A stretch of DNA of 35,909 nt from a virus, in IMG/VR virus record IMGVR_UViG_3300028630_000004, positions 1-35,909 of that record; one strand, 5' to 3'. The notes under the pieces are model-generated. The model was given only the letters and a program-made list of their open reading frames with translations, did no database searches and was not told where the DNA came from. A program made the translations under genes and the position numbers. Position 1 is the stretch's first letter. Each line of letters begins with the position of its first letter. This document shows, piece after piece, positions 269 through 35,909 of this stretch.

Positions 269-546
269 GCGACGAAACGCCGGTATCGCACCGCGAGTGC
301 AATATGCGGCACCAGCTCGTCGAACAGCGGTTCGGGACGCTCGAACGCGACATGGGCGACGTCAAGCGCGACGTTTCGGAGATCCGGGTGCAGCTCGGCG
401 ACATGCAGAAGGACAGCAAGGCGTTTTACGGCGACGCCCGGCAGGCGCTCGTCTGGACGCTCCGCATCATGGCGATCGTCCTGGTGCTCGTCGCCGCCGG
501 GCGCGGGCTCGACCTCTCGTCGATCCTCACCGGGGGGATCATCTGA
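265..546 (+). CDS. Small coiled-coil protein with a C-terminal transmembrane helix (XhlA-like architecture)
   Basis: ATGA overlap with the upstream gene. The N-terminal charged heptad-like segment (QLVEQRFGTLERDMGDVKRDVSEIRVQLGDMQKD) is followed by the hydrophobic stretch WTLRIMAIVLVLVAAG. Confidence 0.5.
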   Translation: MSDETPVSHRECNMRHQLVEQRFGTLERDMGDVKRDVSEIRVQLGDMQKDSKAFYGDARQALVWTLRIMAIVLVLVAAGRGLDLSSILTGGII

Positions 547-932
547 TGGCCCGGATGACGCCGGAGCAGCTCAAGGCCCGGCTCGACAACCTCGCGATCA
601 AGATCGTCCCGGCGGTCGCGGAGGGCATGAAGCTCGCCGCGGCCAACGTCGAAGGGCGGGCCAAGCTGAACTGCTCCCCGGGCTCGTCGCCGTACTACCG
701 GGCCCCGTTCCAGACCGGGCACCTGCGGGCGAACATCAAGCACGACACCCAGATCACCGGCCGCACCGTCACCGGGCTCGTCGGCGACCCCGTCGAGTAC
801 GCCGAGGCCGTCCACGAGGGTACCTCGCGGATGCAGGGCCGGCCGTTCATTCTCGACGCGATCGTCTCGGAGCGCGAGACGACGGCGGCGATCCTCTCCG
901 AGGCGCTCGGCGACGCGCTGGAGGACACGTGA
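546..932 (+). CDS. HK97 gp10-family head-tail joining protein
   Basis: Motifs TGHLRANI...GLVGDPVEYAEAVHEGTSRMQGRPFILDA match the gp10-family signature (tG.Lr.si ... YA..vE.GT..m.a.PFl). Position in the neck module agrees. Confidence 0.7.
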   Translation: MARMTPEQLKARLDNLAIKIVPAVAEGMKLAAANVEGRAKLNCSPGSSPYYRAPFQTGHLRANIKHDTQITGRTVTGLVGDPVEYAEAVHEGTSRMQGRPFILDAIVSERETTAAILSEALGDALEDT

Positions 933-1333
933 CCGTCGCCATCACCGCCGCGATCATCACGGCGCTCAAGGCCAACACGGCGCTCACCACGGCCCTCGGT
1001 GGGGCGTACGTCTACCCCCGCAACCGGGAGGCCGTCGCGCAGGTGCCGGGCATCTACCTCCTGACCAACACGGAGACGTCCGCGACCCGCCCCGGCTACC
1101 TGTCGGCGAAGCACCGGGACAGCCGGCAGATCCTCCAGGTCGACGTCTTCGACGACGGCACGGCCCTCCAGGTCGACACCCTCGCCGACCTTGTCGACTC
1201 GGCCCTCTTCGGCACCGAGATCGCGGGGTTGATCGTGCAGGGGCGGGTATCGCGATCCGAACAATTCGAGGCGGACACGGGCCGACATCACGTCGCGCTG
1301 CGGTACGCCCTCGCGTATTCACTACAGGACTGA
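929..1333 (+). CDS. Tail completion / tail terminator-like protein (DUF3168-like)
   Basis: GTGA overlap, 134 aa, sits immediately upstream of the tail tube gene. The N-terminus ITALKANTALTTALGG..VYP is typical of this family. Confidence 0.45.
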   Translation: MTVAITAAIITALKANTALTTALGGAYVYPRNREAVAQVPGIYLLTNTETSATRPGYLSAKHRDSRQILQVDVFDDGTALQVDTLADLVDSALFGTEIAGLIVQGRVSRSEQFEADTGRHHVALRYALAYSLQD

Positions 1334-2773: not shown

Positions 2774-5485
2774 ATGGTAAACCTGGGCGAACTCGTTTTC
2801 AGCATCGTCGCGGAGGACAGAGCGTCCGCGACGGTCGGCGCAACCGCGCAGAAGATCGCTGGGGCGGGCGTGGCAATCGGCGCCGGCATCGGTGTCGCCG
2901 GGGCAGCGGCAACGGCCCTGATCGACGCGAACCGGGGCATGGATGCGAGCTTCGCGACCACCGCCGCGTCGATGGGACTGCCGGCCGATGCCGTGAAGGA
3001 GCTGGCCCGCTCCCTCCAGTCCGTCGACAGCCCGATCGAAGAGGTTGCGGCGACCCTCGACATCCTCGCCCGCGGCGGGATGACGAACGTCGACAGCATG
3101 GGCGCGACCGCGTCGGCGTTCGACACCCTCGCGGACGCGACCGGGCAGAACGCCGACGCCCTGACGGATGCGATGGTGCCGGCGTTCAACGCTCTCGGGA
3201 TCGAGCTCGAGAAGGCGCCTGCATACGTCGACGGGCTCGCGGTCATGTTCCGTAAGTCGAACGTGGACCTCGGCGACTTCTCGACGATGATGACCCGCAT
3301 GGGCCCGGACCTCGGCGAGATGGGCATGGGGCTCACGGATGTCGAGGCGATCCTGATGAGCTTCGCCGACCGGGGCATCACGGGCCGCAAGGCAACGACC
3401 GAACTCACCGAGGCGATCAACGCGGCCGACGGGGACATCTCGAAGTTCTACGACTCGATCGGGCTGACCGAGGGCGAGCTGCAGGCCTACGGGGCGCAGG
3501 TCTCGAACGTTGCCGGCACGGCGCAGGAGTTCGCGGACGCGCAGAACTCGCAGTTCGGGACGATGGATAAGTTCGCGTTCGAGATCACCAAGCTCAAGCA
3601 GGGGCTCGGCGACGTCCTCAAGCCGTTCGAGGGCGTGGCGTCCGCGGCGATGGTGGTCGGCCCGGCGATCGCGATGGTCGTGCCCGCGGCCGTCTCGCTT
3701 GCAGGGGCCATCGGTGCCGGCGGCGGGCTCGCGGCCGTGGTCGGCGGGCTCAGTGCGACGGTAATGGGCGCCGCGGGTGCTCTCGCGGCGTTCCTCGCGC
3801 CGCTCATCGCGCCGATCGCGGTGATCGCCGCCGTGGTCGCGGGGCTCTACCTCCTGAACAAGCAGTTTAACTTTGTCGGCGGGATCGTCGAATGGCTCGG
3901 CGGGGTCTTCGAGGGCTTCGCGTCGTGGCTCGGCGACACGTTCGGCCCGATCATCGACGGCGTGATCGGCTTTGTCGGCGAGCTCTTCGGCGAGATGGAA
4001 GACGGCGAGGGGCCGATCGAGATGGTCCTCGGGCTCTTCAAAGACCTCGGGGATGTCGCGCTCAGGGTCGGCGGGTTCATCGGCAGCGTGCTCGGCCCGG
4101 CGATCCAGGCCGTCGCGACGTGGATCGGCGAGACGCTCGGCCCCGCCATCAAGGGCGTGGTCGGGTTCTTCGGCGACCTGTGGGAGGAGGTGAACAAAGC
4201 CGGCGGCGTCTTCGAGCGCGCGCGCGATGTCATCGTTGCCGCGTGGAACGTGATCGCCAGCCTCTTCGGGGGCGGTGATGGGAACGGCGTGGTCGTGGCC
4301 ATCAAGGGGCTGTGGGACGCCGTCCTCGCCTACGTGCCTGTGGCGTGGGGCTCCATCATCCAGGCCGTCGGCACGGCGCTCGTCGCCCTCGGGACGTGGA
4401 TCCTGACCAACGGCCCGCCGCTCGTCGTCGCGGCGATGCAGGCGATATGGACCGCGATCACGGTCACGATCCCTACGGCGTGGGCGGCGATACAGACGGC
4501 CGTCGCGACGGCCGCGGGGCTGATCTGGACCTGGTTATCGACCGAAGGCGTCCGGCTCGCAGGTGCGGCCGTGGCGTCGATCTGGACGTGGATCCAGGGC
4601 GCGGTTCCGGCCGCGTGGTCGGCAATACAGGCGGCGGTCGTCGCGGCGGCTCAGGCCATCTGGGCGTGGCTCACGGGCGAAGGGAAGGCCGGCGCGGACA
4701 CGGCGGTTAAGTCGATCTGGTCCACCATCGCGGGGGCCGTCCCGGACGCGTGGAAGGCGATCATGGCCGCCGTGCTCGCGGCAGCGCGGGCGATCTGGTC
4801 GTGGCTCTCCGGTGGTGGTGCGGGCGAGGCGAAGAGCGCCATCGGGGCCGCGTGGTCGGCGATCGCGGGGGCCGTCCCGGACGCATGGAAGGCAATACAG
4901 GCGGCGGTCGAGTCGGCGGCGCGCCGCGTCTGGAACGCGGCAAAGGAGATCCTCGGCAAGCCGATCGAGATGGTCGTCACGACCATCCAGCGCACGGTTG
5001 AAGAGGTCGTGCAGGGGGCGACCACCTTCCTCGGCGGTGGCGGCTCGAGCGGCACGACCTACTCCCCGAGCAACGTCGTTTCCGACGAGAAGCGGTACGA
5101 CAGCGACGGCGTCCAGGTCGGGGGGAACTCGTCGAGGAGCTATTACGGCGATTACATCTACAGCCCGGACGGCCACAAGATCGGCCGGTACATCGGCGGC
5201 AAGGCGACGTACTACCACTCGGGGGGCATCGCCGAGAATGAGCAGCTTGCAGTCCTCCTCAAGAACGAGCGCGTTCTGTCGCCGGCACAGACGAAGGAGT
5301 ACGACGCCGGGCTGTTGTCGGCCGTGCAGGCGCTCGCGGCGAAGATCGACCAGCTCGGCGGCTCCGGTGGCGGTGACGTGATCGTTCACGGCGACGTCAA
5401 GCTCTCCGAGGACTACTCATACGACCGCTTCCGCGAGGATGTCGGGCGCTGGAAGTCGAGCCGGATCGCGAAGGGGGTGCTCTGA
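2774..5485 (+). CDS. Tape measure protein
   Basis: 903 aa, Ala/Gly-rich with hydrophobic stretches and internal ~45-aa W-rich tandem repeats. Canonical position. Confidence 0.85.
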   Translation: MVNLGELVFSIVAEDRASATVGATAQKIAGAGVAIGAGIGVAGAAATALIDANRGMDASFATTAASMGLPADAVKELARSLQSVDSPIEEVAATLDILARGGMTNVDSMGATASAFDTLADATGQNADALTDAMVPAFNALGIELEKAPAYVDGLAVMFRKSNVDLGDFSTMMTRMGPDLGEMGMGLTDVEAILMSFADRGITGRKATTELTEAINAADGDISKFYDSIGLTEGELQAYGAQVSNVAGTAQEFADAQNSQFGTMDKFAFEITKLKQGLGDVLKPFEGVASAAMVVGPAIAMVVPAAVSLAGAIGAGGGLAAVVGGLSATVMGAAGALAAFLAPLIAPIAVIAAVVAGLYLLNKQFNFVGGIVEWLGGVFEGFASWLGDTFGPIIDGVIGFVGELFGEMEDGEGPIEMVLGLFKDLGDVALRVGGFIGSVLGPAIQAVATWIGETLGPAIKGVVGFFGDLWEEVNKAGGVFERARDVIVAAWNVIASLFGGGDGNGVVVAIKGLWDAVLAYVPVAWGSIIQAVGTALVALGTWILTNGPPLVVAAMQAIWTAITVTIPTAWAAIQTAVATAAGLIWTWLSTEGVRLAGAAVASIWTWIQGAVPAAWSAIQAAVVAAAQAIWAWLTGEGKAGADTAVKSIWSTIAGAVPDAWKAIMAAVLAAARAIWSWLSGGGAGEAKSAIGAAWSAIAGAVPDAWKAIQAAVESAARRVWNAAKEILGKPIEMVVTTIQRTVEEVVQGATTFLGGGGSSGTTYSPSNVVSDEKRYDSDGVQVGGNSSRSYYGDYIYSPDGHKIGRYIGGKATYYHSGGIAENEQLAVLLKNERVLSPAQTKEYDAGLLSAVQALAAKIDQLGGSGGGDVIVHGDVKLSEDYSYDRFREDVGRWKSSRIAKGVL
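4430..4960 (+). repeat. Four tandem ~135-nt (45-aa) repeats inside the tape measure gene
   Basis: The repeated peptide is (S/A)IW(T/S)xIxGAVPxAWxAIQAAVxxAAxxIWxWL. The exact 20-mer ggcaatacaggcggcggtcg occurs at 4621 and 4891 (270 nt = 2 x 135). Confidence 0.8.
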
Positions 5486-5821
5486 ATGACTGCCGTATCA
5501 TACGCCACGGTGGCCCTGAGCCACCCCAACCTGCCGTCATTCGACCATGACCCCGTCTGCAACGAGACCGACCTTCACGGCGGCGGGGTGGGCGTGCAGG
5601 GCAGCACCCGCTCAAAGATGAAGTGGGTCTTCACCTGCCTGGCGGATAGCCACGATGAGATCGACGCGCTCGACGCCTTGAAGGGCACGCTCCAGACGCT
5701 CAACATCGACGGCGTGCTCTACCACGGTGTGATGATCTGCAAGCCGTTCGTGGAGACGCAACTGACGCCGAGCGCGTGGAGCTACACCATCGGATTTATC
5801 CAGGAGACACCATCATCATGA
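5486..5821 (+). CDS. Small tail-tip protein (role inferred from position only)
   Basis: 111 aa, starts one nt after the tape-measure stop. No motif recognised. Confidence 0.4.
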   Translation: MTAVSYATVALSHPNLPSFDHDPVCNETDLHGGGVGVQGSTRSKMKWVFTCLADSHDEIDALDALKGTLQTLNIDGVLYHGVMICKPFVETQLTPSAWSYTIGFIQETPSS

Positions 5822-6192
5822 CACTCAGCATTTCACCGGTAACAATCCTGACCGCCGCCGACCTTGGCCCACACGCGACCACGGACCCGTCAACCGCGGT
5901 CGATGGCTCGGCGGTCGTCGCCCTCGGCATCACGGCACTTATGACCCTCCACGCGGACGCCACGGCTGGGGCGCGGGTGTATGTGTACTCCGGCCCAACC
6001 GTCGGCCTGCTCGGGGCATTTCCCACGCAGATAGTTGACGTGCCGGTCACCTTCAAGTCCCCGACCATCACCGGCGTCTCGTTCTCGGTCCTGCCCGGCC
6101 ACAAGGCGTATCTGGTCACCGTACAGAACCTCGACCCGGTCCAGCACATCACGGGGATCACGGTCCACGCCGAGCCGCAGGTACTGAGCTGA
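5818..6192 (+). CDS. Small tail-tip protein (role inferred from position only)
   Basis: ATGA overlap at 5818-5821; 124 aa with beta-rich composition. Confidence 0.4.
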   Translation: MTLSISPVTILTAADLGPHATTDPSTAVDGSAVVALGITALMTLHADATAGARVYVYSGPTVGLLGAFPTQIVDVPVTFKSPTITGVSFSVLPGHKAYLVTVQNLDPVQHITGITVHAEPQVLS

Positions 6193-6202: not shown

Positions 6203-9200
6203 ATGGCCCGCGAAACTTATTTTCAGTGGCCGTATTCGCTCGAGTACGCCGTCGACTCGCCGCCGACCGTCAACCTCCTGCACGGCTCGCCGCTCTCGGA
6301 GTGGCCCGCCTACGAGGCGACGGTTACCCCGGACGCGCTCGCGGCACCGGGCGGCGACGTCTCGGCCGATCTGATCCTCGAGACGACGGCGACCAGCAGC
6401 CACTTCCTCGACAAGCCCGTGGCGGTCCTGCCGAACACGGATTACACGCTCTCCGTCTACCTGCACGCACAGGACCGGACGTATGCCTGCCTCCACGCGC
6501 TCGGCGACGAGACGACGGCATGGGCGTACTTTGACCTGGCCGTCGGCGGATGGGGCGCGGCGTCCGGCGTCGATGCCACCTGCGTCTCTGACGAGGGCGA
6601 CGGCTGGTTCCGGTGCTCGTTCACGTTCAACTCCGGCGCGGACACCCTGATCGGCGTGGGCGTGGCGCCGTCCGTGGCCGGCTCGTCCTGCTGGTCCGAC
6701 GAGTACGCCGGGGACGCGGCGAAAGGGATCTACGCGACCCTGCCGCAGCTCGAGCCGGTCAACCTGTTGTGCGCCGCGACCGAGGTCTCGGCATGGGCCC
6801 CCCGCGCGGCGACGCTCGGGGCCGGGGGCCTGATCCGGGAGACGGTCGCACACTCGCTGCATGTGGCGGAGCGGCGTGTGGGGGTCTCACCGTACACGGG
6901 CCACGCCCTCTCTGTCGTGGTCGAGGCGCGGGGCCGCACCCACGCCTGTCTATCCGCGTTCGGCGACATGACGGCCGCGTGGGCCTTCTTCGACCTTTCC
7001 GCCGGCACGGTCGGGGAGTCGGGCGGCGTCACGGCTCCGGCATGTGTCGCCCTCGGCGGCGGCCGGTATCGGTGCTCGTTCGCGTTCACGACGGCCGGAG
7101 ACACGGCGGTCTATGTCGGGATCGCCCCGGCGACGGGGCCGGCCTGTCTGGACGACACGTACGCGGGCGACCCGGCCCGCGGGATCGCCGCCAGCGCGCC
7201 CACCCTCCGGCCCGCCACGGTCCCGACGGACGCGATACCCTGCTACGTCGTGCCGTTCACGGTCGCGTGGAAACCCGGGATGCGGCAGGACTTCCGCGAC
7301 CTCCGGTTCCGCGACGAGGGGATGGAGCCCTGCACGCACCGGCTGGAGTCCTACACGGCCGGCACAACGGCGACGTTCCTCATCGAGATCCGGCCCGGGC
7401 AGGAGCGGCTCTCCGTCCTCTACGGGAATGGCGCGGCCGTCTCGGCGTCGGACGACACGTTCTGCCCGGTGCTGGATGCGTTCAGCGGTGCCGCCGTCGA
7501 TACCGCGATCTGGACCGACCTCGGCGGCACGGCCGTCTCTGGCGGCACCCTGACGATCACGGGGGGGTTTGGCGAGTTCGGCGTCTCGTCGATCGCCGCG
7601 CTCGGCATCGGGACGGAGCTCCGCGCCCGCCTCACCTACACGCCGGGCTCGGCCTCCTACACGGAGATCGGGTACGGGGGCTACGGGTCGGACTATGCCC
7701 TTCTCGTGTACGGCACCACCCTGGCCACATACACCCGGAACGACGCCATGGGGGAGAGCACGGCGCTCGCGCTGCCGGCGGGCTATCACACCCTGGCGAT
7801 CCGGCGGGCGTCGGCGTCGGCGGTCGTGTTCCTGATCGACGGGGTGGCGGTCGCGACACACGACGAGCAGATCCCCGACGCCGCCGTTCCGATCCACATC
7901 GTCTCGACCTACAACATCGGCGCGAGCATGGCTCTCGACTGGATCACCGTCCGGCCGTGCCTCGCCATCGAGCCGACGATCACGTACACGGGCGCGGACT
8001 GCAACCCGTGGTCACCGCTCGTCAACCGGCCGGCGGCGCTCTTTGACGTGCCGTTCGACTGGTCGGACTTCGACGCCGTCAAGGAGCGGGCGCTCGTCTC
8101 CTACACGGTCCGGCGCTCGGCGTCCGACGTGATGTACTCCGCCGACGTGACGATCCACGACCTGGTCCCGCAGGGGACGAACTTCACCCGCGTCAAGCTC
8201 GTCGAGCCCGACCACAACGGCGTCGACCGGCTGATCTTCTTCGGCTTTCTGCCCGCGCAGACCTCGACGATCCAGGCGGCGAAGAACAGCACGAACTACA
8301 AGGGATGGGATTATGGGTACTACATCGCGTCGGCATACATGCCCATCTCCTGGTGCACCCTGCCGAGCACGACGGCGAGTCCGGGGCAGTGGATCTATGA
8401 CCGGATGTCCTACCCGACCCACTGGACGGACATCGCCGACCCGAGCCGCGACCTCTTCGATCTGTCGAACGTGGACGTCGACGCGCCCGCCGCGTGGGGG
8501 ACTGACGCCCTACCCGTCCGCGACATCGTCTGCCCGACCACCTCGTCTCACATGGCGGTCTATCAGGCGGTCGCGGCCAGGCTCGGCTGCATCTTCTATC
8601 CGCGCTGGATCGACGTGGGGAAGACGCCGACCATCGGCCACCAGGACCCGGCGTACCGGATCATCCGCAAGGAGGCTGAGGACTACGATGCGGGCGGCGA
8701 GGGCGTCGGGTATCACGACACGACCGCGGCGAACCTCGGCGGGGCGTACCGAAAGGACGGCGTCGATATCGAGTACTTTGCGAGCGAGGCCGGGTACAAC
8801 GTCGGGTGGATCCGGGACGGCGAGTGGCTGCAGTACACGGTGAACTTCCCCGTCGCCGATACCTACGTGGCCCGGTTCAGGACGGCGAGCGCGGCGGCCA
8901 CGGGCGCACGGTCCTTTAAAGTCTACCTCGACGGGGCGCTCGTCGATACGATCAGCGTCGACGGGACCGGCTCGTATTCGACCTTCGACTGGAATACCGA
9001 CACCTGCGATGTCGTGATCGGGACGGCCGGCAACCACACGATCAAACTCCTGTTCGACAACGCGGGCGACGATGTCGCGGACCTGCTGCATATGAACCTC
9101 GCGGCGATGGAGTTCACGCCGACGCCGGAGGACACTGGCACGACGCCGCCGACCACCGTGCCGGCCCTGTACTGGTGCGACGAGGCCGACCTCGACACGG

Positions 9201-9946
9201 CGCTCGGGCTCCCCGTCATCGAGATCCCGCCGTATGATCCGACCCTCGCGGGCGCGGTGAAGTACGCGGAGGACATGAGCGACGTAGCCAACGCCGTGGT
9301 GGTCCGCTACCACCTCGGCACCGGCGCGACCCCCGACGAGATCCTCGAAACGACGGACTGGATCGCGGACCGCAACGGGCTCGAGCACTGGATCGAGCAC
9401 GTCGAGACGGTCGAGGCGCCCATATCCACGGCGACAGCGGAGGCGCTCCGGGACGCCCTGCTCGCCTACTTCGCCGAGGACTGGGGCACGGTGACGGCGA
9501 AGTTCATCCGGCGCACGGACCTGCAACTGTTCCAGCGGCTCTGGTTCCGCGGCCACGACCAGATCCCCGAGTACGAGGACGACGGAACGACGCCGGTGCT
9601 CTTCCGCATCGTCGATATTTCGTACTCCGTCGGGCTCGCGAAGTGCGACGTTGCGATCACCGCCGTGCCGGCGCGGAAGTTTTCAATCGAACGACAGATC
9701 GCCCGGACGAGGGCCCCCGACCCGGCGACGGAGATCGAGGCCATCGCGCGGAGTGTCCTCAAGACCCTGCCGCCGGCCCTCACCGGCACGGCCGGGTCGG
9801 TCGTCGGGACGGGCTCGGTCGCGGTCGCCCTCGACCGCGGCGGCACCATCACGGCCCGGGGCGTGGCGGCGTCCGGCTCGCGGGTGGTCTGCACCTGGGC
9901 CGAAGGGATCGGCTACGTCGCCAGCGTGATCGCGGCGGCCGTCTGA
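6203..9946 (+). CDS. Giant multidomain tail fibre / receptor-binding protein: 2 x CBM4/9-like, DUF2341-like, LamG-like, tail-tip-like core, CBM6-like
   Basis: Two tandem ~150-aa domains (WPAYEATV..TDYTLSVYL..YACLHA..AWAYFDL..FRCSF..CWSDEYAGD). Then DFRDLRFRDEGM...LSVLYGNGAA (DUF2341-like), a LamG-like block, and EAEDYDAGGEGVGYHD...GWIRDGEWLQYTV...YVARFRTA (CBM6-like). Confidence 0.8.
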   Translation: MARETYFQWPYSLEYAVDSPPTVNLLHGSPLSEWPAYEATVTPDALAAPGGDVSADLILETTATSSHFLDKPVAVLPNTDYTLSVYLHAQDRTYACLHALGDETTAWAYFDLAVGGWGAASGVDATCVSDEGDGWFRCSFTFNSGADTLIGVGVAPSVAGSSCWSDEYAGDAAKGIYATLPQLEPVNLLCAATEVSAWAPRAATLGAGGLIRETVAHSLHVAERRVGVSPYTGHALSVVVEARGRTHACLSAFGDMTAAWAFFDLSAGTVGESGGVTAPACVALGGGRYRCSFAFTTAGDTAVYVGIAPATGPACLDDTYAGDPARGIAASAPTLRPATVPTDAIPCYVVPFTVAWKPGMRQDFRDLRFRDEGMEPCTHRLESYTAGTTATFLIEIRPGQERLSVLYGNGAAVSASDDTFCPVLDAFSGAAVDTAIWTDLGGTAVSGGTLTITGGFGEFGVSSIAALGIGTELRARLTYTPGSASYTEIGYGGYGSDYALLVYGTTLATYTRNDAMGESTALALPAGYHTLAIRRASASAVVFLIDGVAVATHDEQIPDAAVPIHIVSTYNIGASMALDWITVRPCLAIEPTITYTGADCNPWSPLVNRPAALFDVPFDWSDFDAVKERALVSYTVRRSASDVMYSADVTIHDLVPQGTNFTRVKLVEPDHNGVDRLIFFGFLPAQTSTIQAAKNSTNYKGWDYGYYIASAYMPISWCTLPSTTASPGQWIYDRMSYPTHWTDIADPSRDLFDLSNVDVDAPAAWGTDALPVRDIVCPTTSSHMAVYQAVAARLGCIFYPRWIDVGKTPTIGHQDPAYRIIRKEAEDYDAGGEGVGYHDTTAANLGGAYRKDGVDIEYFASEAGYNVGWIRDGEWLQYTVNFPVADTYVARFRTASAAATGARSFKVYLDGALVDTISVDGTGSYSTFDWNTDTCDVVIGTAGNHTIKLLFDNAGDDVADLLHMNLAAMEFTPTPEDTGTTPPTTVPALYWCDEADLDTALGLPVIEIPPYDPTLAGAVKYAEDMSDVANAVVVRYHLGTGATPDEILETTDWIADRNGLEHWIEHVETVEAPISTATAEALRDALLAYFAEDWGTVTAKFIRRTDLQLFQRLWFRGHDQIPEYEDDGTTPVLFRIVDISYSVGLAKCDVAITAVPARKFSIERQIARTRAPDPATEIEAIARSVLKTLPPALTGTAGSVVGTGSVAVALDRGGTITARGVAASGSRVVCTWAEGIGYVASVIAAAV

Positions 9947-11552: not shown

Positions 11553-11911
11553 TCGCCCGCACGACCGCCGGCACCGTCCGGGTTGGCCGCGGTGCGCTCG
11601 CCGGCTGTCTCCTGCTCCAGACCCCCGAGCGGTCGGCCGCGATCCGGCTCGACGACTACCACGACCTGATCGCCGGCCTGATGCACAGACCGATCGACGT
11701 GGTGGCCGCCCTGTACGACCGGATCGGCCGCGCGACGGTCAGCGGCGACGCGCTCCATGTCGAGCTCGCCGGGTGCCACTACCACGCCTGGTGCTCCGAC
11801 CTCGCCGCGCTCCTCGAAGGCCGGCGGGACTCGGTCGCGCTCGGCTTGCTGACGCCTGAATATTCGACCTCCGCCCCGGCGACGGGTAACGCCGGCCCCC
11901 TCCACGCATGA
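11549..11911 (+). CDS. Hypothetical protein
   Basis: 120-aa ORF in the coupled chain. Confidence 0.4.
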   Translation: MIARTTAGTVRVGRGALAGCLLLQTPERSAAIRLDDYHDLIAGLMHRPIDVVAALYDRIGRATVSGDALHVELAGCHYHAWCSDLAALLEGRRDSVALGLLTPEYSTSAPATGNAGPLHA

Positions 11912-12852
11912 CCGGCCTGACGCACCTCTCCCTCTTCACGGGGATCGGGGGCATCGACCTCGCGGCCGAAGCGGCCGGCTTTGAAACTATTGCACAGGTG
12001 GAACGTGACAACTACTGCCGAAGAGTCCTGGCCAAACACTGGCCGGGAGTACCGCGATTCGACGACGTCCGGGACGTTACAGCAGACGCTCTTCGGGACG
12101 CCGGCATCGGACGCCCGACCCTCGTCTCCGGCGGCTTTCCCTGCCAGCCGTTCTCCTGCGCCGGGAAGCGACGAGGCGCTGCGGACGACCGTTTCCTCTG
12201 GCTTGAGATGTGCCGGATCGTGTCGGAGTGCCGGCCGGCTTGGGTGCTTGGAGAGAACGTTGCTGGGTTCGTCGGCATGGCGCTCGACGATTGCGCTGCT
12301 GACCTGGAGCGTCTCGGCTACGCCGTCCGGGCGTTCGTTGTTCCGGCTGCGGGCGTCGGTGCCCCCCACCAGCGCGCCCGGTGCTTCATTGTGGTCAACA
12401 CCGCAGGTCGTGATGCCGGACCACTCGGAGACGAGGCACCTGGACGAGACGGGGCGAACGGTCAACGCGAAGGGCGACGACTACGGGATGAACCTCGTGG
12501 AAGCCGTACGGATGTGGCCGACGCCGACCGGGACCGGGAACAACAACCGCAAGGGCCTCTCGGAGCGATCGGGCGACGGCCTCGCGACGGCGGTGCATCT
12601 CTGGCCGACGCCGACGAGCCGCGACCACAAGGACACGGGCGACTGTGCGAACGTCCCGGTAAACTGCCTTCTTGGGCGGGCAGTCGGGCCGACGAAGACG
12701 AATGGCTCGCTCGCGCCGGAGTTTGTCGAGTATCTCATGGGGTTCCCAATCGGGTACACCGACTGCGAGCCCTCGGGAACGCCGTCGTCCCGGCGCAAGT
12801 CTACCCGTTCGTCCAGGCCATCGCCGACATCGAGCGAGGGGTGATCGCGTGA
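11908..12852 (+). CDS. DNA (cytosine-5) methyltransferase; the annotated frame stays open, but the target-recognition domain (about 12395-12763) is only recognisable in the +1 frame
   Basis: The annotated frame has motif I LFTGIGG, motif IV GGFPCQPFS, ENV, HQRARCFIV and a C-terminal LGNAVVP. The +1 frame has WSTP.., MWPTPTG.., LWPTPTSRDHKD.., LAPEFVEYLMGFPIGYT. Confidence 0.8.
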   Translation: MTGLTHLSLFTGIGGIDLAAEAAGFETIAQVERDNYCRRVLAKHWPGVPRFDDVRDVTADALRDAGIGRPTLVSGGFPCQPFSCAGKRRGAADDRFLWLEMCRIVSECRPAWVLGENVAGFVGMALDDCAADLERLGYAVRAFVVPAAGVGAPHQRARCFIVVNTAGRDAGPLGDEAPGRDGANGQREGRRLRDEPRGSRTDVADADRDREQQPQGPLGAIGRRPRDGGASLADADEPRPQGHGRLCERPGKLPSWAGSRADEDEWLARAGVCRVSHGVPNRVHRLRALGNAVVPAQVYPFVQAIADIERGVIA

Positions 12853-16861: not shown

Positions 16862-18106
16862 GTGATTGAAGCCGCGCTCGCAGTCTCACCAGTCGGAACG
16901 TATAGCACCCTGCCCATATCATCCATTCGGGTTAAGGACGGCAGGCGCCCGATCAACGGATCGAAGGTCCGCGAGATCGCAGACTCGATCCCGCTCGTCG
17001 GCCTGATCAACCCGATCACGGTCTCGACCGACAACGTCTTGATCGCCGGGCTCCACCGGATCGAGGCGTTTAAGTCGCTCGGGCTACGGGAGATCCCGGC
17101 GCTCGTCTTTTCCTACGACGAGATACAGGCGAAGCTCGCCGAAGTCCTCGAGAACTCCGCCCGCGCCGACCTCTCTGAACTCGCGAAAGGGCAGGCGCTC
17201 CTCGAGGCGAAGACGCTCTACGAGGCCATGCACCCCGAGACGAAGCACGTTTCGGAACGAGGGGGGCCAGGGAGGGGCAATAAAACAGACGAATCTGATT
17301 CGCCTGTTTTGGCGTTCACATCAACCGTGGCAAACGACGCCGGGACCACGGCGCGCGCGATCCAAACGTCGATCCAGATCGCGAAGGCGATCGCACCCGA
17401 CGTCCAGGAGGCGATCGCCGGCACCGACCTCGCCGACTCGAAAAAAGACCTGCTCAACCTCGCCCGTATCAAGGACCCGGAGAAACAGCGCGAGGTCGCC
17501 CGGAAGGTAATCGAGGGGGAGGCGAAGGACGTCCACACGGCCTACATCAATGTGAACCGCGCCGAGAAGCTCGAGGCGCTCGCCGAACCGGCGCCCATGA
17601 GCACCGCGGCGGGCTCCTATAATGTGATCCTCGCCGATCCCCCGTGGCGGTATGAGTTTTCAGAGACGTCCGGTCGCAAGGTCGAGAACCACTACCCGAC
17701 GATGGAACTGGACGAGATCGCGGCGCTCGAGGTCCCGGCCGACGAGACCGCGATCCTCTTCCTATGGACAACCGCCCCGAAGCTCGAGGAGGGGCTAGAC
17801 ATCCTACGGGCGTGGGGCTTCACGTACAAGACCTGCGCGATCTGGGACAAACTGAAGAAAGGGCTCGGCTACTACTTCCGCGTTCGTCACGAGATCCTGC
17901 TCGTCGGGACGCGGGGCGACTTCCCGACGCCGGCCGCCGAGACCCGGTTCGATTCGGTCTTCGCCGTGCCGAAGGGCGAACACTCAGCGAAGCCGGCAAT
18001 CGTCCACGAAATGATCGAGGCCATGTACCCGAAGGCCCGGCGCCTCGAGGTCTTCGCACGGGCGGCCCGGCCCGGGTGGGCGGTGTGGGGCAATGAAGCG
18101 CCATAA
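16862..18106 (+). CDS. ParB N-terminal domain fused to an MT-A70-family N6-adenine DNA methyltransferase
   Basis: ParB-like LVGLINPITVSTDNVLIAGLHRIEAFKSLGLREIPALV. MT-A70 motifs ILADPPWRYE, HYPTM, LFLWTT, AWGFTY, HSAKP, LEVFARAARPGWAVWGNEA. Confidence 0.85.
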   Translation: MIEAALAVSPVGTYSTLPISSIRVKDGRRPINGSKVREIADSIPLVGLINPITVSTDNVLIAGLHRIEAFKSLGLREIPALVFSYDEIQAKLAEVLENSARADLSELAKGQALLEAKTLYEAMHPETKHVSERGGPGRGNKTDESDSPVLAFTSTVANDAGTTARAIQTSIQIAKAIAPDVQEAIAGTDLADSKKDLLNLARIKDPEKQREVARKVIEGEAKDVHTAYINVNRAEKLEALAEPAPMSTAAGSYNVILADPPWRYEFSETSGRKVENHYPTMELDEIAALEVPADETAILFLWTTAPKLEEGLDILRAWGFTYKTCAIWDKLKKGLGYYFRVRHEILLVGTRGDFPTPAAETRFDSVFAVPKGEHSAKPAIVHEMIEAMYPKARRLEVFARAARPGWAVWGNEAP

Positions 18107-26973: not shown

Positions 26974-28368
26974 ATGGTCCGCGCGCAGAGCGATCCGGCG
27001 TGGTGGGTCTCGAGCGTGCTCGGCAACACCCTCTTGCCGAAGCAGGTCGAGATCATCGAGTCCGTCCGCGACCACCGCGAGACGGCCGTCAAGTCCTGCC
27101 ACGCGGCCGGTAAGTCGTTCACCGCCGCGAACGTCGCGCTCTGGTGGCTGTTCAACCATCGGCACTCGATTGTCATCACCACCGCCCCGACCGACCGGCA
27201 GGTGCGCGGCATTTTGTGGAAGGAGATCCGCACCGGCCACCAGCGCGCCCGGGTGCCGCTCGGTGGAACCCTGCTGAGTCAGGAGCTCAAGCTCGATAAC
27301 GACTGGTGGGCGTGGGGCTTCACGGCGCCCGGGTACGACCCCGACCGCTTCCAGGGCTTCCACGCCATCCACACGCTCGTCATCGTGGACGAGGCGAGCG
27401 GGGTGACGGAGGACATTTACGACGCCATCGACGGCGTGCTGACGGCCGACGAGTCCCGGCTCCTGATGATCGGCAACCCGACCAACCCGAGCGGCCGGTT
27501 CGCAAAGGCGTTCAAGACGCCCGGGATCGCGAAAGTCTCGATCAGCGCCTTCGATACGCCGAACTTCACGACGTTCGGCATCACCGAAGCGGACATCGCC
27601 GCCGGCGCGTGGGAGCAGAAGATCACGGGCCCGCTCCCGAACCCCTACCTCGTCACCCCGCGGTGGGTCGCCGACCGCTACAAGCGGTGGGGCCCGGACT
27701 CGGCGATGTACGGCGCGAAGGTCGATGCCCGCTTCCCCGCGGCCGGGAACGACACCCTGATCCCGCTCCACTGGATCGAGGCCGCGGTCGCCCGAACGCT
27801 CGTGCCATCGGCCCCGTCCGAGCTCGGCGTCGATGTCGCCCGGTTCGGCTCCGACGAGACGGTGATCATGCACCGCGCCGGCCCCGTCGCCCGGACGCTC
27901 AAGGTGATCCCGATGAGCGACACGATGGAGACGACCGGCCACGTCGTGCAGGCTATCGCGGCCGTCAAAGCACTCGCCGCAAAGGTCGATGCGGTCGGCG
28001 TCGGCGCGGGCGTGTACGACCGGCTCAAGGAGCTCAAGCAGCCGGCCCGCGAGATGCAGAGCGGACAGGCCGCGAAGGATCCCGAGCGGTACGCGAACGC
28101 CCGCGCCGAGTGGTGGTGGGGGCTCCGCGAGCGATTCGAGGTCGGCGACATCGACATCGAGAACGACGAGACGCTGATCGAGCAGCTCGCCGACCTGCGA
28201 TACAAGGTGAACTCGCGGGGCCAGATCCTCATCGAATCGAAAGAGGACATGAAGAAGCGCGGCGTCGGCAGCCCCGACCGGGCTGACGCGCTGATGCTCG
28301 TTTTCGGCACGCCGAGCGGACCGGCTCCCGGCCGGTTCGGCGTCGTCTCAGGAGTTCGATCATGGTAG
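26974..28368 (+). CDS. terL: Terminase large subunit
   Basis: Walker A-like SCHAAGKSF, Walker B LVIVDEASG, and a C-terminal nuclease-like half. The ORF is open from 26932; ATG 26974 avoids overlapping terS. Confidence 0.9.
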   Translation: MVRAQSDPAWWVSSVLGNTLLPKQVEIIESVRDHRETAVKSCHAAGKSFTAANVALWWLFNHRHSIVITTAPTDRQVRGILWKEIRTGHQRARVPLGGTLLSQELKLDNDWWAWGFTAPGYDPDRFQGFHAIHTLVIVDEASGVTEDIYDAIDGVLTADESRLLMIGNPTNPSGRFAKAFKTPGIAKVSISAFDTPNFTTFGITEADIAAGAWEQKITGPLPNPYLVTPRWVADRYKRWGPDSAMYGAKVDARFPAAGNDTLIPLHWIEAAVARTLVPSAPSELGVDVARFGSDETVIMHRAGPVARTLKVIPMSDTMETTGHVVQAIAAVKALAAKVDAVGVGAGVYDRLKELKQPAREMQSGQAAKDPERYANARAEWWWGLRERFEVGDIDIENDETLIEQLADLRYKVNSRGQILIESKEDMKKRGVGSPDRADALMLVFGTPSGPAPGRFGVVSGVRSW

Positions 28369-30116
28369 CACGAATCATACAGGGCGATTGCCTCGACGTG
28401 ATGCGCGAAATGGACGCCGGCAGCGTCGACGCCGTCGTGACCGATCCGCCGTATGGCCTGAACTTCATGGCCCGCGACTGGGATCACGGCGTGCCGGGCG
28501 AACGCTACTGGATCGAGGCGTTGCGGGTTGCGAAGCCCGGAGCGCATCTGCTCGCCTTCGGCGGGACGCGGACCTTTCACCGGCTGACCTGCGCGATCGA
28601 AGATGCCGGATGGGAGATCCGCGACTGCCTCGGCTGGATCTACGCTTCTGGATTCCCGAAGTCGCTCGACGTCTCGAAGGCGATCGATAAGATGGCGGGG
28701 GCCGAGCGCACCGAACAGATCGGCGTTTATATCGAGCCCGACGGGTGCCGGAGATCGTCGTTTGCCAACGCGACCGGCAACTGCTACGGGCGCGATGGAC
28801 GCCCACGCGAAAAGCCGATCACCGCCCCGGCAACCGGCGCCGCGAAGAAGTGGTCGGGGTGGGGCACGGCCCTGAAGCCGGCAGTCGAGTACGTCATCAT
28901 GGCGCAGAAGCCGATTGGAGGTGAAAGGGAACAGTATATAACAGTTGGGAACCTATATAAAGTAGAGGTTCGGCTGTGGTTACTGTTGTGTGCGAACGGT
29001 GCGGGCGAGAGTTCGACGTTAAGCCCGGACGAGTACGGCGAGGCGTTCGCTTCTGCTCAATGGACTGCCGCCGACGTGTCCAGTACACTGGCCGATTTGT
29101 CCGATCTGACGGATACGTCGCGCTTAAGGTCGGCGATAAGTTCGACCTTGAACACCGTGTCGTCATGGCGGAGCACTTGGGAAGAAGCCTTGAGCCGTGG
29201 GAGCAGGTTCATCACCGAAACGGCGACCGGGCCGATAATCGACTCGAAAACCTTGAACTCCTCAGCGTCGGCGCTCACACCGCAAGACATCATCCGGGCC
29301 GCGATTCTTCGACCTGGCTCATGGTGGAGTGCCATACCTGCGGCAAACATTTTGAACGCCGCCGCCACGAGGATGCGCGGCACCCTCGACATTTCTGCTC
29401 TAGAGAGTGCTATCGAAAAGGGGCACATCTCACGCCCGGGCGGTCTCGACCCGACCGTCTCGTTTAGGCCGATCATCCTCGCCCGCGCACCGCTCACCGG
29501 CACCGTCGCCGCGACCGTCTGTGAGCACGGGACCGGAGCCCTGAACATCGACGGATGCCGGATCGGGACAGATGACGACCGCGCGCGCCCTCCCGGCAGA
29601 ACCTCGGCGAACACATGGGATCTTTCAGGGCGCACCGAACCCTCTACCTCACATCCCGCAGGCCGATGGCCGGCGAACCTGATCCACGACGGCAGCGACG
29701 AGGTGCTCGAGCTGTTCCCGATGCAGTCGGGCGGCGGGCAACCGAAGCGGCGAGGCGGCGACACCGAGCGCAACGCCTTCGGTGACTTTGCCGGTGGGGA
29801 TGCTACGCCCGGCGTCGGCCGCTCGTCCGGTTCGGCGTCCCGGTTCTTTTACTGCGCTAAAGCTTCGAGAGCGGAGCGCGGCGAGGGCAACGTCCACCCG
29901 ACGGTGAAGCCCCTCGCGCTCATGCGCTACCTCTGCCGGTTGATCACACCACCCGGCGGGCTCGTCCTCGACCCGTTCGCCGGCTCGGGTTCGACCCTGA
30001 TCGCCGCCGTTGCCGAGGGCTTCGAGGCGGTCGGGATTGAGAGAGAAGCGGCATACGCTGAGATCGCCCGGCAACGGTTCGGGCCGCTCGACCAATTCGC
30101 TGAGGCTACATCATGA
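28362..30116 (+). CDS. N4/N6 DNA methyltransferase (DPPY, beta-class order) interrupted by a ~546-nt insertion that its reading frame nevertheless passes through
   Basis: [11 protein letters not shown] (motif IV); [19 protein letters not shown]; then [34 protein letters not shown]; [13 protein letters not shown]; [11 protein letters not shown] (motif I). The middle 182 codons look non-protein-like. Confidence 0.85.
28923..29468 (+). mobile_element. Lower-GC insertion cassette carrying an HNH homing-endonuclease gene with its own TATA-like and SD signals
   Basis: GC drops sharply at about 28915. Signals are cagtatataacag, cctatataaag and gaggt 8 nt before GTG 28976. Flanked by duplicated MTase motif copies at 28884-28922 and 29463-29504. 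Confidence 0.75.
28976..29467 (+). CDS. HNH homing endonuclease with flanking Zn-ribbon motifs
   Basis: [62 protein letters not shown] is a classic HNH. CERCG...FCSMDC and CHTCG...FCSRECY lie on either side. It reads in a different frame from the host MTase. Confidence 0.85.
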
Positions 30117-31267
30117 AACTGAGAGATCGTATCAGACAACTCGTCGCGGGCCCCAAACCACAGCCCAAAGCGGCGGCATCGAGCGGCACCCGGCCGGACT
30201 ACTTCCGCAAGTCCACGCGCGACACAGCGACGATGGCCCGGAACGCGGCGATCTACGAGTCCGGCGGGATCGTCACGGCCGCCATCAAGGCGCCGGGCAG
30301 GACCGTCCTGTCGAACGGCTGGCGGCTCGACGGCGAGGAGGGCGCGGTCAAGCAGGTGCAGGAGGCCATCGACGCGCTCGACTTCGAGACGCTGGTGTCC
30401 ATGTTGGTCGATTACGCCTACGTCCACGGCAATGGCCTGGCCGAGATCGTCCCGTTGCGCGGCGGCGGGCTGACCGTCCAGCTCCGCGACCCGGCCCGGT
30501 TCAAGATCGAGCAGGACGCCTGGGGCAACATCGTCGGGTATCGGTTCGTGCAGGAAGACACGTTCGACGACTCCCGCGGCCCCCTGCTCCTGCCGGAGGA
30601 GATGATCGACCTCTGCCTTGATCCCGTCCCGAACTCGCCCTACGGCCGCTCCCTCGTGTCCGTCTGCATCGACGAAATCTTGAGAGACGCGAAGACCAAC
30701 GAAGGGCTCGCGAAGGCCATCGAACGGCATGGGTTCCCCAAGTACCACATCGGCGTCGGCGTCAGTGGCGAGCAGGTGGCGGAGGCGGACCTGAAGGGGC
30801 TGCGGAAAGAGTTCGAGAACCTCAGCAGCAAGAACGAGTTCATCACGGGCCCGGACATCGCGATCAACACGATCGACGCGACGGGGATCAACAACTCGTC
30901 CGAGATCGACAACGTCTTTTCGTCCCGGCTCTGCGCCGCGCTCGGCGTGCCGCCCGAACAGATCGGGCTCGACGCGACGGGATCGACGGAGGCGACGGCC
31001 AACGTCCGGTTCCGGGCATGGTACGACCGGATCGCGGCCCTACAGCGCGTCGTGGCGACGACCCTTTCCCGCCAGCTCTTCGACCGGATCACCGGCCGGC
31101 CCGGTGCCTGCTGGATCGTCTTCGAGGATCCGTCGCCGGAGGACATGGCGCAGAAAGCCGAGTGGATCAGCAAGATCATGGCGGCGACGCCGATGGACCC
31201 GTTCGCCGTGCTGCCGCAGGACTGGATCCAGCAGCAGTTCGGGATCGACCCGACGGGGGCCGACTGA
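30113..31267 (+). CDS. Portal protein
   Basis: 384 aa, between the terminase/MTase genes and the Mu-F-like gene; ATGA overlap. Confidence 0.7.
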   Translation: MKLRDRIRQLVAGPKPQPKAAASSGTRPDYFRKSTRDTATMARNAAIYESGGIVTAAIKAPGRTVLSNGWRLDGEEGAVKQVQEAIDALDFETLVSMLVDYAYVHGNGLAEIVPLRGGGLTVQLRDPARFKIEQDAWGNIVGYRFVQEDTFDDSRGPLLLPEEMIDLCLDPVPNSPYGRSLVSVCIDEILRDAKTNEGLAKAIERHGFPKYHIGVGVSGEQVAEADLKGLRKEFENLSSKNEFITGPDIAINTIDATGINNSSEIDNVFSSRLCAALGVPPEQIGLDATGSTEATANVRFRAWYDRIAALQRVVATTLSRQLFDRITGRPGACWIVFEDPSPEDMAQKAEWISKIMAATPMDPFAVLPQDWIQQQFGIDPTGAD

Positions 31268-33681: not shown

Positions 33682-34647
33682 ATGACACAACTCCTCCGAA
33701 CCTACCTCGACATCGGCCTGAACCAGCCGACCGGCCGCGCGCTCGAGCGGGCCGTGTCCAAGATCCCCCGCGAACTCGGCACCGTCTTCGACGGCAAGGT
33801 CGAGCCCGTCCGCGAACTGCTCCTCACGACCGCGATCGAGTCGACGAACCTCATCCAGACGGAGATGTACAGGACCGTCGTCGAGGGCGCCGAGCCGTTC
33901 AAGGTGATGCGCCAGGCGCTGAACGTCCTGCCCATGAACGCGGCGACGCTCGACATCCCCGTCGGCGAGGTCGGGTCGTATGCCCGCGAGGTCGCCGAGG
34001 GCGCCGAAGTCCCGATCTCCACGCAGGACTACAGCAAGGTCACCTTCACGGCGAAGAAGATCGCCGAGCGGCCCGTCATCACGGACGAGATGGTCGCTGA
34101 TGCGCTGTACCCCGTCATCGAACTCGAACTGCGGAAGGCCGGCGCCAAGCTGGAGAACAAGATCAACCAGATGGCGATCGTCGAGCTCGTCGACAACTCC
34201 GCGACGCTGGAGCACGACACCGGCGGCGCGAACCAGGGCATCAAGGCGATCGCGGCCGCACAGGCAAAGGTCGAGGGCGCGGGCTTCATCCCCGACCGGA
34301 TCGTGATGTGCCCCGGCTTCAAGGCCGGCATCATGGCCGAGTTCGTCCCGACCGGCTACAGCGGCGCCGACGCCGTCATGACCGGCAAGCTCCCGAACCT
34401 GCTCGGGCTCCAGGCGTTCGTCTCGAACGTCGTGCACACGACCGCCGCCTCGTGGGCGTACGCCGCCAACGACAACCTCGGCGCGGTCGTCTTCGACTCG
34501 CAGAACGGGTCGATGATCGGCGTCCGGCAGGACATCACCGTGAAGCGGTACGACGACGTCGTGCGCATGCTTCAGGGAACCGTCGTCTCGGCCCGCGTCG
34601 CCGTCGACACCCTCTCGGCGTCCGCCGGATCGCGGATCAAGTACTGA
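33682..34647 (+). CDS. Major capsid protein (HK97 fold expected)
   Basis: 321 aa, immediately after the protease/scaffold and decoration genes. Composition is typical of an MCP. Confidence 0.75.
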   Translation: MTQLLRTYLDIGLNQPTGRALERAVSKIPRELGTVFDGKVEPVRELLLTTAIESTNLIQTEMYRTVVEGAEPFKVMRQALNVLPMNAATLDIPVGEVGSYAREVAEGAEVPISTQDYSKVTFTAKKIAERPVITDEMVADALYPVIELELRKAGAKLENKINQMAIVELVDNSATLEHDTGGANQGIKAIAAAQAKVEGAGFIPDRIVMCPGFKAGIMAEFVPTGYSGADAVMTGKLPNLLGLQAFVSNVVHTTAASWAYAANDNLGAVVFDSQNGSMIGVRQDITVKRYDDVVRMLQGTVVSARVAVDTLSASAGSRIKY

Positions 34648-34657
34648 GGCGCCGCTC

Positions 34658-34858
34658 ATGGTGCTAAGTCCACAGAACAGCGGGAAATACCTCTCCCGCT
34701 CGTGGGCTGAAGCAAGAGCGGACGCCTACGAATATCGCGACACCTACACGGCCGCGGAACTCACCTGGCTCGAGGTGCCCGACGTCACGGTGCCGGAAGA
34801 GGCGTTCCTCGACGCCGCCGGGCATGACATCAGGAACCGGCCGGAGGTCGGTGCATGA
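34658..34858 (+). CDS. Hypothetical small protein
   Basis: 66-aa ORF with an ATGA overlap downstream. Confidence 0.35.
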   Translation: MVLSPQNSGKYLSRSWAEARADAYEYRDTYTAAELTWLEVPDVTVPEEAFLDAAGHDIRNRPEVGA

Positions 34859-35235
34859 CGTACTGCACGACGGCCGAGCTCGTCAACCTCACCGGCTCGA
34901 CCCTCTCGACCACGATCCTCACGGCCGTGATCGAACAGGGCGACCGGGAGATCGATACCTACCTCGCGCCGTACGGCGTCGGGGCGGACGCGTCGGCGTG
35001 CAAGTCGGCATCGCTCGAACTGGCGAAGGCCGGCATCCTCGACCGGATGCGGCTCGACGGCACGCAGCCCGACCAGTCGACCGAGGGCGACTACTCGCAG
35101 ACGGTCCAGATCGAATCGGCCATCAAGCGCCACCGGGCCGCCGCATTCGACATCCTCGACCGCTACGTCTCCGCCGCGTCGGCCGCGTCGGCGTCCGTCA
35201 GCAAGTACCACGTCGTGAAGGTGGTCGGCCGGTGA
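34855..35235 (+). CDS. gp6-like head-tail connector protein
   Basis: MTYCTTAELVNLTGS..L...I..AVIEQGDREIDTYL matches the Phage_connect_1 N-terminus. Position agrees. Confidence 0.55.
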   Translation: MTYCTTAELVNLTGSTLSTTILTAVIEQGDREIDTYLAPYGVGADASACKSASLELAKAGILDRMRLDGTQPDQSTEGDYSQTVQIESAIKRHRAAAFDILDRYVSAASAASASVSKYHVVKVVGR

Positions 35236-35909
35236 GACTGCCGCACGTCTGCACGATCCAGAAGGCGACCGCCGGCACGGCCGACGCATACGGCGAGACG
35301 GCCCCCGAGTGGTACGCGGCCACGGCCCCGATCGCGTGCCGGTTCTACTACTCGTCGCCCGGGGAGCAGTTCGCCCGGGACGTTTCGGGCACGGTGCTGA
35401 AGGACGCGCTCTCGCTCATGCTCCCGCCGTCGGCCGTGGCGTTGCTCGGCGGAGACCTCGCGCTCTCGTCCTGGCCCGCCTACGAGGCGACGGTGTCGGA
35501 CGGTCTCGTTCTTGAGACCACCACAACGGCGCCGCATTTCGTGGACCGGCAGCTCACAGTGACGGCCGGGACGGACTACACCCTCTCGGCCCTCCTCGCG
35601 GCGCAGGAGCGGGCCTATGCGTGTCTGCACGCGCTCGGGGAGACCGTCACGGCGTGGGCGTACTTCGACCTCACGGCCGGCACGGTCGGCGCTCATTCGG
35701 CCGACGCGACCGACCCGCAGTGCACCCCCGTCGATGGCGGGTTCCGGTGCTCGTTCGGCGTCAACAGCGGCGCGGACACGACCCTCGGGATCGGCGTGGC
35801 CCCGGCAACGGATGACACCGACTGCTGGTCGGACGAGTACGCCGGCGACATCACAAAGGGCATCTACTCGTCGATCCCCGTGCTGGAGATCGGCGCGCCG
35901 ACCTTCCCG
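35232..35909 (+). CDS. 5' part of the junction-spanning head-closure/adaptor CDS, with a ~150-aa CBM4/9-like domain inserted (continues at 2-268)
   Basis: GTGA overlap start. VRLPHVCTIQKATAGTADAYGETAPEWYAATAPIACRFYYSSPGEQF is the SPP1 gp16-family N-terminus. From about 35455 the sequence is paralogous to the fibre N-terminal domains. Confidence 0.6.
   Translation, partial: MRLPHVCTIQKATAGTADAYGETAPEWYAATAPIACRFYYSSPGEQFARDVSGTVLKDALSLMLPPSAVALLGGDLALSSWPAYEATVSDGLVLETTTTAPHFVDRQLTVTAGTDYTLSALLAAQERAYACLHALGETVTAWAYFDLTAGTVGAHSADATDPQCTPVDGGFRCSFGVNSGADTTLGIGVAPATDDTDCWSDEYAGDITKGIYSSIPVLEIGAPTFP
35783..35909. repeat. Terminal overlap, identical to nt 1-127
   Basis: See feature 1-127. Confidence 0.95.

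Follow-up and report, generated by a model that had tools for sequence, protein, structure and literature searches.

Sugar-binding modules are known on the fibres, distal tail, tail tube, capsid and accessory neck proteins of phages; head-completion proteins are treated as small single-domain parts. The head fibre of RcGTA attaches particles to the capsular polysaccharide of recipient cells (PMC7296036), and a fluorescent fusion of this fibre binds capsulated cells but not capsule-less ones (PMC10218006). The fibre protein, Rcc01080 (GhsB), is carried on a flexible tether at a distance from the tail tip and uses capsule binding for initial reversible attachment (PMC7296036, PMC10218006). In the "evolved" distal tail proteins (Dit) of Lactobacillus, Streptococcus and Lactococcus phages, and likewise in Sf11 gp17 with its C-terminal appendage, a hexameric ring of tail-tube fold carries a peripheral module of sugar-binding type, and auxiliary adhesion to cell-surface glycans has been proposed as the role of evolved Dit (PMC6669499, PMC7533335). 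The neck passage structure (NPS), which forms the collar and whiskers of lactococcal 936 and P335 phages, displays carbohydrate-binding modules at the neck and is a hot spot of domain exchange (PMC6669499, PMC10684548). In a survey of domain mosaicism, the head-tail joining proteins were structurally uniform (PMC10684548). Among these, the gp16-type stoppers (PF05521; PBSX XkdH, the T1 stopper, RcGTA g7) have one core fold of ~110 residues without insert. Here we analyse the viral record IMGVR_UViG_3300028630_000004, a DNA of 35,909 nucleotides that we call the window, in which a gene running across the two contig ends is predicted to encode a stopper of this type with a phage adhesin-like jelly-roll inserted in one loop. 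We consider it probable on balance that this "evolved stopper" shows six adhesin-like modules at the neck and binds host surface polysaccharide with them.

The gene has to be read across the ends of the contig. Direct comparison of the window ends shows that the stretch 35783-35909 recurs without any change at bases 1-127. Such a 127-bp terminal repeat is the usual overlap that linear assembly of a circular molecule leaves behind; the genome, circular or circularly permuted, measures 35,782 bp once the overlap is removed. Because the terminal 127 bp are repeated, features near the contig ends are to be joined at base 128. The original prediction had joined 35232-35909 to 2-268, which repeats 42 residues and corresponds to no real protein; the length of 301 residues given for the product was also wrong, and is not even what that join yields. 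The correct join keeps the frame continuous and encodes 272 residues.

1-127, unstranded: assembly overlap, to be dropped before the ends are joined.
35232-35909, plus strand: stopper (head-closure) gene, piece 1, codons 1-226; the start codon GTG and the stop of the preceding gene overlap in GTGA (35232-35235).
128-268, plus strand: stopper gene, piece 2, codons 227-272 and TGA stop (266-268); this stop and the start codon ATG of the following gene overlap in ATGA (265-268).

Start and stop are coupled to the neighbouring genes at both ends, and orthologues of the product start MRLPHVCTIQ. An uninterrupted 272-residue gene with 90-95% identity lies inside five contigs from other metagenomes (L001-L005), away from their ends, and the protein is also found as the database entries P0001-P0003. 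Since the same intact gene is present in five independent contigs, the junction gene is real and is a single gene rather than two, as the original prediction of one reading frame across the junction had it.

In an exhaustive phmmer search against 1.84 billion representative proteins, the relatives fell into two classes. The first comprises proteins of 110-116 residues that align as two stretches to residues 1-69 and ~215-272; the second comprises proteins of 400-2000 residues in which the middle domain occurs one to seven times. The proposal that ~150 extra residues sit in the middle of a ~110-residue protein is thus borne out, the excess over the short proteins being ~157 residues. A profile of the bare (insert-free) orthologues matches the window protein in two separate pieces, and at the point of insertion the bare proteins read LPASAT-ITKAK-RVTTTQ where the window protein reads LPPSAV-(157 residues)-EYRVVTTQ. 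By these alignments and the structural models below, the middle of the protein is a loop insertion relative to the bare orthologues, located in the β3-β4 loop, that is, between the strand after the long "tunnel" loop (β3) and β4. The parts of the protein are as follows.

35232-35435, plus strand: core N-half, residues 1-68, with β1, β2, the long "stopper" loop and β3 (bare-orthologue profile positions 2-69, E 5e-20; secondary structure from the AlphaFold2 (AF2) model).
35436-35891, plus strand: inserted module, residues 69-220, one complete repeat unit "VALL…PVLE", a β-jelly-roll (same unit boundaries as the tail-protein modules).
35892-35909, plus strand: C-terminal linker of the insert, residues 221-226, continuing in residues 227-231 at 128-142 (predicted local distance difference test score (pLDDT) <50 at 223-225; site of a length change in P0003).
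143-265, plus strand: core C-half, residues 232-272, β4 to β6 (bare-orthologue profile positions 66-115, E 8e-18).

When the two-domain model is given to Foldseek, the jelly-roll dominates and the stopper is missed; hence a bare orthologue was modelled instead. This protein, P0006, has 115 residues, is 77% identical to the flanks of the window protein and gave an AF2 model with a pLDDT of 84. Foldseek matched it to PBSX XkdH, SPP1 gp16 (7z4w chain 1, 2kca), the T1 stopper and neck components of Pam3, Bxb1, Douge and SaPI1 at probability 1.0 and template-modelling (TM) scores of 0.45-0.68; a neck component of phiXa was also matched at probability 1.0, and the entries 3f3b, 9l0e and 9d94 were among the matches at this probability. 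In the AF2 model of the 272-residue protein itself, the flanks have the same strand order as the bare core, and a long low-confidence loop at residues ~41-60 takes a position equivalent to the SPP1 tunnel loop. The structural models bear out the gp16-type fold that had been proposed for the flanks and identify the product of the junction gene as a stopper or head-closure protein of the SPP1 gp16 type. The label "adaptor" that the original prediction attached to gp16 was mistaken, as gp16 is the stopper or head-completion protein of SPP1, and the adaptor is gp15. By family, the protein would form a hexameric ring under the adaptor, with the long loop closing the channel.

The sequence families give weaker indications. 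Pfam PF05521 (Phage_HCP) has no match to the whole protein and reaches only E 0.02 and 15.9 bits on the N-terminal flank, below the gathering cut-off of 25; it matches 4 of 12 bare orthologues weakly (best E 8e-4). The spliced flanks have a weak match to phrog_615, "head-tail adaptor" (E 0.09), and searches of the whole protein, the flanks and the insert against Pfam and PHROGs gave sub-threshold matches only. The sequence profile of the bare orthologues, compared with the PDB, returned only spurious beta-rich matches (P2 gpV spike) and did not find gp16. Compared with the described gp16-type stoppers, the window protein has the same long β2-β3 loop where the SPP1 tunnel loop sits, and its gene occupies the same slot, after a presumed adaptor and ahead of the genes for tail completion and the terminator. 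It differs from them in that its similarity to PF05521 stays under the family threshold and in that it has a folded module of 157 residues in the β3-β4 loop, the described members being single-domain.

Relatives exist both with and without the insert. Besides the carriers of the insert (L001-L005 and P0001-P0003) and the bare P0006, contig L007 encodes a bare orthologue of 115 residues in a syntenic neighbourhood. The combination of a stopper with this module occurs in one 50%-identity cluster only, among the best 150 hits listed, and a tblastn search of 50,697 GenBank phage records found no relative of the protein. Other stoppers of the clade (P0004, P0005, P0044, P0173-P0180; loci L008 and L009) have 176-206 residues and no jelly-roll. 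The proteins P0004, P0005, P0044 and P0173-P0180 carry an unrelated, mutually homologous insert of 65-95 residues after β1, following "CTIQ", in the β1-β2 loop. In SPP1 gp16, the β1-β2 loop projects toward the tail (PMC9701221). With bare stoppers, stoppers with a β1-β2 insert and stoppers with a β3-β4 insert, the clade therefore has three architectures and two insertion sites.

A scan of genome collections with the capsid protein found one 37%-identical locus, L010 (JAQTYS010000001.1, a "Methanothrix sp." metagenome-assembled genome (MAG)), with a bare stopper at 7482-7823. This locus has 44% G+C against 67% in the window, and the protein P0166 comes from a "Methanoregulaceae archaeon" MAG. 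In genome collections, all relatives stand on contigs binned with methanogenic archaea. Such binning may be an error in samples from anaerobic digesters or may point to a real host, and is of no help in assigning a host.

What kind of module has been inserted? The AF2 model of the 272-residue protein has a mean pLDDT of 83, with the jelly-roll residues ~90-220 at pLDDT 86-96, and the jelly-roll is tied to the core by two low-confidence linkers, residues 75-87 and 223-225. In the PDB, Foldseek matches the insert best to baseplate wedge proteins from two Pseudomonas phages, Pa193 and E217 (E 2e-6), followed by weaker matches to the sugar-binding jelly-rolls EclA-C, a porphyran carbohydrate-binding module (CBM), the CBM22 of Xyn10B and an agarase CBM; among viral structures (BFVD), the best matches are long tail proteins annotated as tip attachment protein J, ConA-like lectin or CenC-like. 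The ~150-residue domain was also searched as a profile family, another check that had been suggested. Against PDB sequences, the family profile matches residues 92-258 of the RcGTA head-spike fibre Rcc01080 with E 2e-50, and E217 gp45, Pa193 gp46 and Sf11 gp17 with ~1e-16 each. This link requires the family profile, as a search of the PDB with the single insert sequence returned nothing. A family profile built without this phage lineage scores 110 bits on neck residues 90-221, and the first of the related modules in the tail protein matches phrog_5939 (E 4e-17). By profile similarity, the insert belongs to the jelly-roll family of the Rcc01080-type phage adhesins, which has no Pfam name and corresponds to the phrog_5939 region. 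An assignment to CBM4/9 (PF02018), made in the original prediction, holds at the level of the general fold only, since neither the insert nor its tail-protein relatives match this model and a distant member, P0020, matches below threshold (E 0.006).

The nearest relatives of the insert lie in the tail protein of the same genome.

6203-9946, plus strand: tail fibre or tail protein of 1247 residues, also with DUF2341 (residues 363-438) and CBM_6 (residues 852-965).
6266-6754, plus strand: module D1 of this protein, residues 22-184, closest relative of the neck insert (55-57% amino acid identity).
6758-7207, plus strand: module D2 of this protein, residues 186-335, 37-38% identical to the neck insert and 43% to D1.

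BLASTP aligns neck residues ~66-219 to tail-protein residues 20-184 with 55% identity (E 6e-52), and the insert to residues 167-335 with 38% identity (E 4e-32), in agreement with the earlier claim that the domain stands twice in tandem at the N-terminus of the 1247-residue protein. The limits of the units are "VALL…PVLE" in the neck and "VNLL…PQLE" and "VNLL…PTLR" in the tail protein; because these boundaries coincide, the neck gene holds one whole unit. The tail protein has both D1 and D2 in the window and D1 only in the 95%-related L001 (17335-20634) and in P0007, of 1097 residues. The number of modules in the tail protein is therefore variable among close relatives, and the neck copy is constant. 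The CBM_6 of the tail protein (8756-9097) is a bona fide one, with E 1e-17, and DUF2341 lies at 7289-7516; with these besides the jelly-roll modules, the virion would have at least three kinds of putative glycan-binding modules.

The 23-nt exact run that had been noted between 35472-35494 and 6302-6324 exists, and the recent intragenomic shuffling deduced from such nucleotide identity does not follow from it. The neck and fibre copies are ~70% identical in DNA over 307 nt (blastn) and 65% identical over aligned codons. Identity at third positions is 52%, the proportion of synonymous differences (pS) is 0.54 and the synonymous divergence (dS) is ~0.95, so that synonymous sites are saturated and the duplication is old. 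Identical codons are used at 54 of the 88 identical residues, close to the 48.5 expected from genome codon usage alone. The DNA resemblance is what protein conservation yields in a genome of 67% G+C, and a recent duplication was rejected on the values of dS and third-position identity. As to where the module came from, its nearest relative among the representative proteins searched is D1, of the same lineage, and outside the lineage identity reaches at most 35%; the insert and D1 also have in common cysteines that are rare in the family. These similarities support an origin of the module within the phage lineage, the same lineage as that of D1. Across four gene variants, the insert has a ratio of nonsynonymous to synonymous divergence (dN/dS) of 0.09-0.44, comparable to the core or lower, which indicates that the insert is under purifying selection. 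Length changes among the variants are restricted to the linkers: P0003 has a duplicated "ALLGGDL" and one Gly fewer in the C-terminal linker.

We propose that the product of the junction gene is the only stopper of the phage, and that its ring would bind under the adaptor, retain the DNA and receive the tail. One adhesin-type jelly-roll unit of ~150 residues, with short flexible linkers, would have been placed in the β3-β4 loop by an old copy event. Because a search of the genome with the bare-orthologue profile found no second stopper gene, each virion should bear six copies of the module round the neck. DNA has to go through the channel, adaptor and terminator sit on the two faces of the ring, and we infer by exclusion that six domains of 17 kDa can only lie outside. 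Tethered there by their linkers, the modules may bind host surface polysaccharide with low affinity and multivalently, and this contact would bring about a reversible primary adsorption, by analogy with the RcGTA head-spike fibre, with CBM-bearing distal tail proteins and with the NPS (PMC6669499, PMC7533335). On that analogy a collar-type adhesion role is plausible, and glycan binding by the module is suggested by the capsule binding of the RcGTA fibre (PMC10218006).

Several observations weigh against this adhesion proposal. The capsule-binding region of the RcGTA fibre has not been mapped to the shared domain, only fibre residues 2-10 are resolved, and the homologous parts of E217 gp45 and Sf11 gp17 are without assigned function. 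None of the Pfam CBM models scores above threshold on the insert, and its structural resemblance to solved sugar-binding modules is weak (E ~6e-3 to 2e-2, probability 0.85-0.99, target TM up to 0.48). Some stopper loops in RcGTA and R4C touch the terminator or neighbouring subunits.

Alternatively, the jelly-rolls could pack on the adaptor, the capsid, the terminator or each other, and the module would be a structural collar that stiffens or protects the head-tail joint rather than an adhesin. Neck decoration or collar proteins without known receptor role do exist (phage 812, Goslar, Bas63), the homologous domain of E217 gp45 lies within the baseplate wedge with no adhesin role proposed, and purifying selection is compatible with any function. 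We nevertheless regard a structural collar as unlikely. The linkers are of low confidence, rich in G, A and P and variable in length, which suggests a tethered rather than a packed module; the great majority of the family occurs in long tail or fibre proteins with several copies; its sole experimentally tested member binds capsule (PMC10218006); and close relatives such as P0006, with a core 77% identical, lack the module, which is therefore not needed for neck stability. A different partner may be considered, namely the tail protein of the phage itself. T4 whiskers assist and retract the long tail fibres, and the neck module could act in a similar manner: by contact with the N-terminal tail-protein modules, which are its paralogues, it would hold the fibre or serve as its chaperone. 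The insert and D1/D2 are lineage-specific paralogues with rare cysteines in common, and the neck copy stays constant while the number of tail-protein modules varies among close relatives. Yet nothing indicates self-association of the modules, the tail length implied by a tape measure of 903 residues puts the tip far from the neck, and the neck module has no coiled-coil or fibre-binding element, so that we think this role quite improbable.

The gene itself might also be questioned. The contig ends lie within the insert and paralogues of the insert are present elsewhere in the genome, so that one could suspect a mis-assembly over the tail-protein repeat, two genes, or interruption by a mobile element, with a true stopper of ~115 residues. 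This suspicion deserves hardly any credence and is already contradicted by the data: the paralogues are ~65-70% identical in DNA with a longest common run of 23 nt, far too little to mislead a 127-mer assembly; the intact gene stands in the five other-sample contigs, not near their ends; the frame is continuous and the dN/dS of the insert is that of a selected sequence (0.09-0.44); and the insert is a folded jelly-roll, neither intein nor endonuclease. An assembly chimera, two genes and an intein or mobile element were rejected on the five contigs, the low paralogue identity, the jelly-roll fold and the dN/dS.

The proposal of a neck adhesion collar can be set against the systems described at the beginning. 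The central domain of RcGTA Rcc01080 is homologous to the neck insert; Rcc01080, however, is a separate protein of 325 residues whose N-terminal peptide anchors it to pentameric bases at the capsid vertices, with one fibre per vertex. The evolved Dit resembles the neck protein in architecture and in the role proposed, and the appendage of Sf11 gp17 is of the same domain family as the neck insert, whereas the scaffold here is a stopper at the head-proximal end of the tail, which places the modules a full tail length from the tip. The NPS is likened to the neck protein by architecture; it is a separate accessory neck protein, while here the module is within an essential connector protein in six fixed copies. 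The theme of sugar-binding-type modules on virion ring proteins is thus known. New is the stopper as scaffold, as no precedent for a stopper with an inserted adhesin domain was found in the literature on the R4C, Jabs, Goslar and SPP1 necks; Goslar gp50 is a two-domain stopper, not an adhesin.

We tentatively advance a broader view, which may well prove too wide: the stopper ring of this clade could be a modular display platform with two insertion hot spots (β1-β2 and β3-β4), turned here into a six-fold receptor-binding collar by a module captured from the tail protein. It would be the first host-adhesion module in an essential head-completion protein, and the neck of a siphophage could then make the primary, reversible contact with the host. 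The stopper tolerates large insertions at two loops. The idea of the evolved Dit would be extended to the opposite end of the tail, and an uncharacterised domain, which is also the Sf11 Dit appendage and the E217 gp45 domain, would be tied to a likely function. For engineering, both loops are candidate display sites for foreign domains in six copies per virion.

The neighbourhood is that of a long-tailed phage, with the order presumed adaptor, stopper, Neck1, terminator, probable tail tube protein and tape measure; the stopper gene lies between the adaptor, identified by position only, and the completion and terminator genes.

30113-31267, strand not given: portal gene, upstream of the stopper.
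33682-34647, strand not given: capsid gene, upstream of the stopper.
34855-35235, plus strand: gene of 126 residues upstream of the stopper, presumed head-tail adaptor by position only; no significant family match, also upstream of the stopper in L007.
546-932, plus strand: tail completion or Neck1 protein (phrog_5, E 4e-16).
929-1333, plus strand: tail terminator (PF11367, E 1e-6; phrog_78).
2774-5485, strand not given: tape measure, downstream; protein of 903 residues.

Between the stopper and the tail completion gene lies a 93-residue open reading frame (265-546, plus strand) with a coiled-coil-like N-terminal part and a hydrophobic C-terminal segment. Its position is kept in L007 (123 residues) and L008 (91 residues), its sole family match is phrog_6136, and such a product is unusual in a neck module. 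At the other end of the tail genes, nothing but two overlapping reading frames on the plus strand, 5486-5821 (111 residues) and 5776-6192 (138 residues), separates the tape measure from the 1247-residue protein. No family match was found for either, and no distal tail protein or tail hub was recognisable; either the tail tip is unusual or the two frames are joined by a frameshift. The window further contains three DNA methyltransferase genes on the plus strand (11908-12852, 16862-18106 and 28362-30116): one is of the C5 type, one joins an MT-A70 type to a ParB N-terminal domain, and one is of the N6/N4 type. The N6/N4 gene stands directly upstream of the portal gene, within the packaging and structural block.

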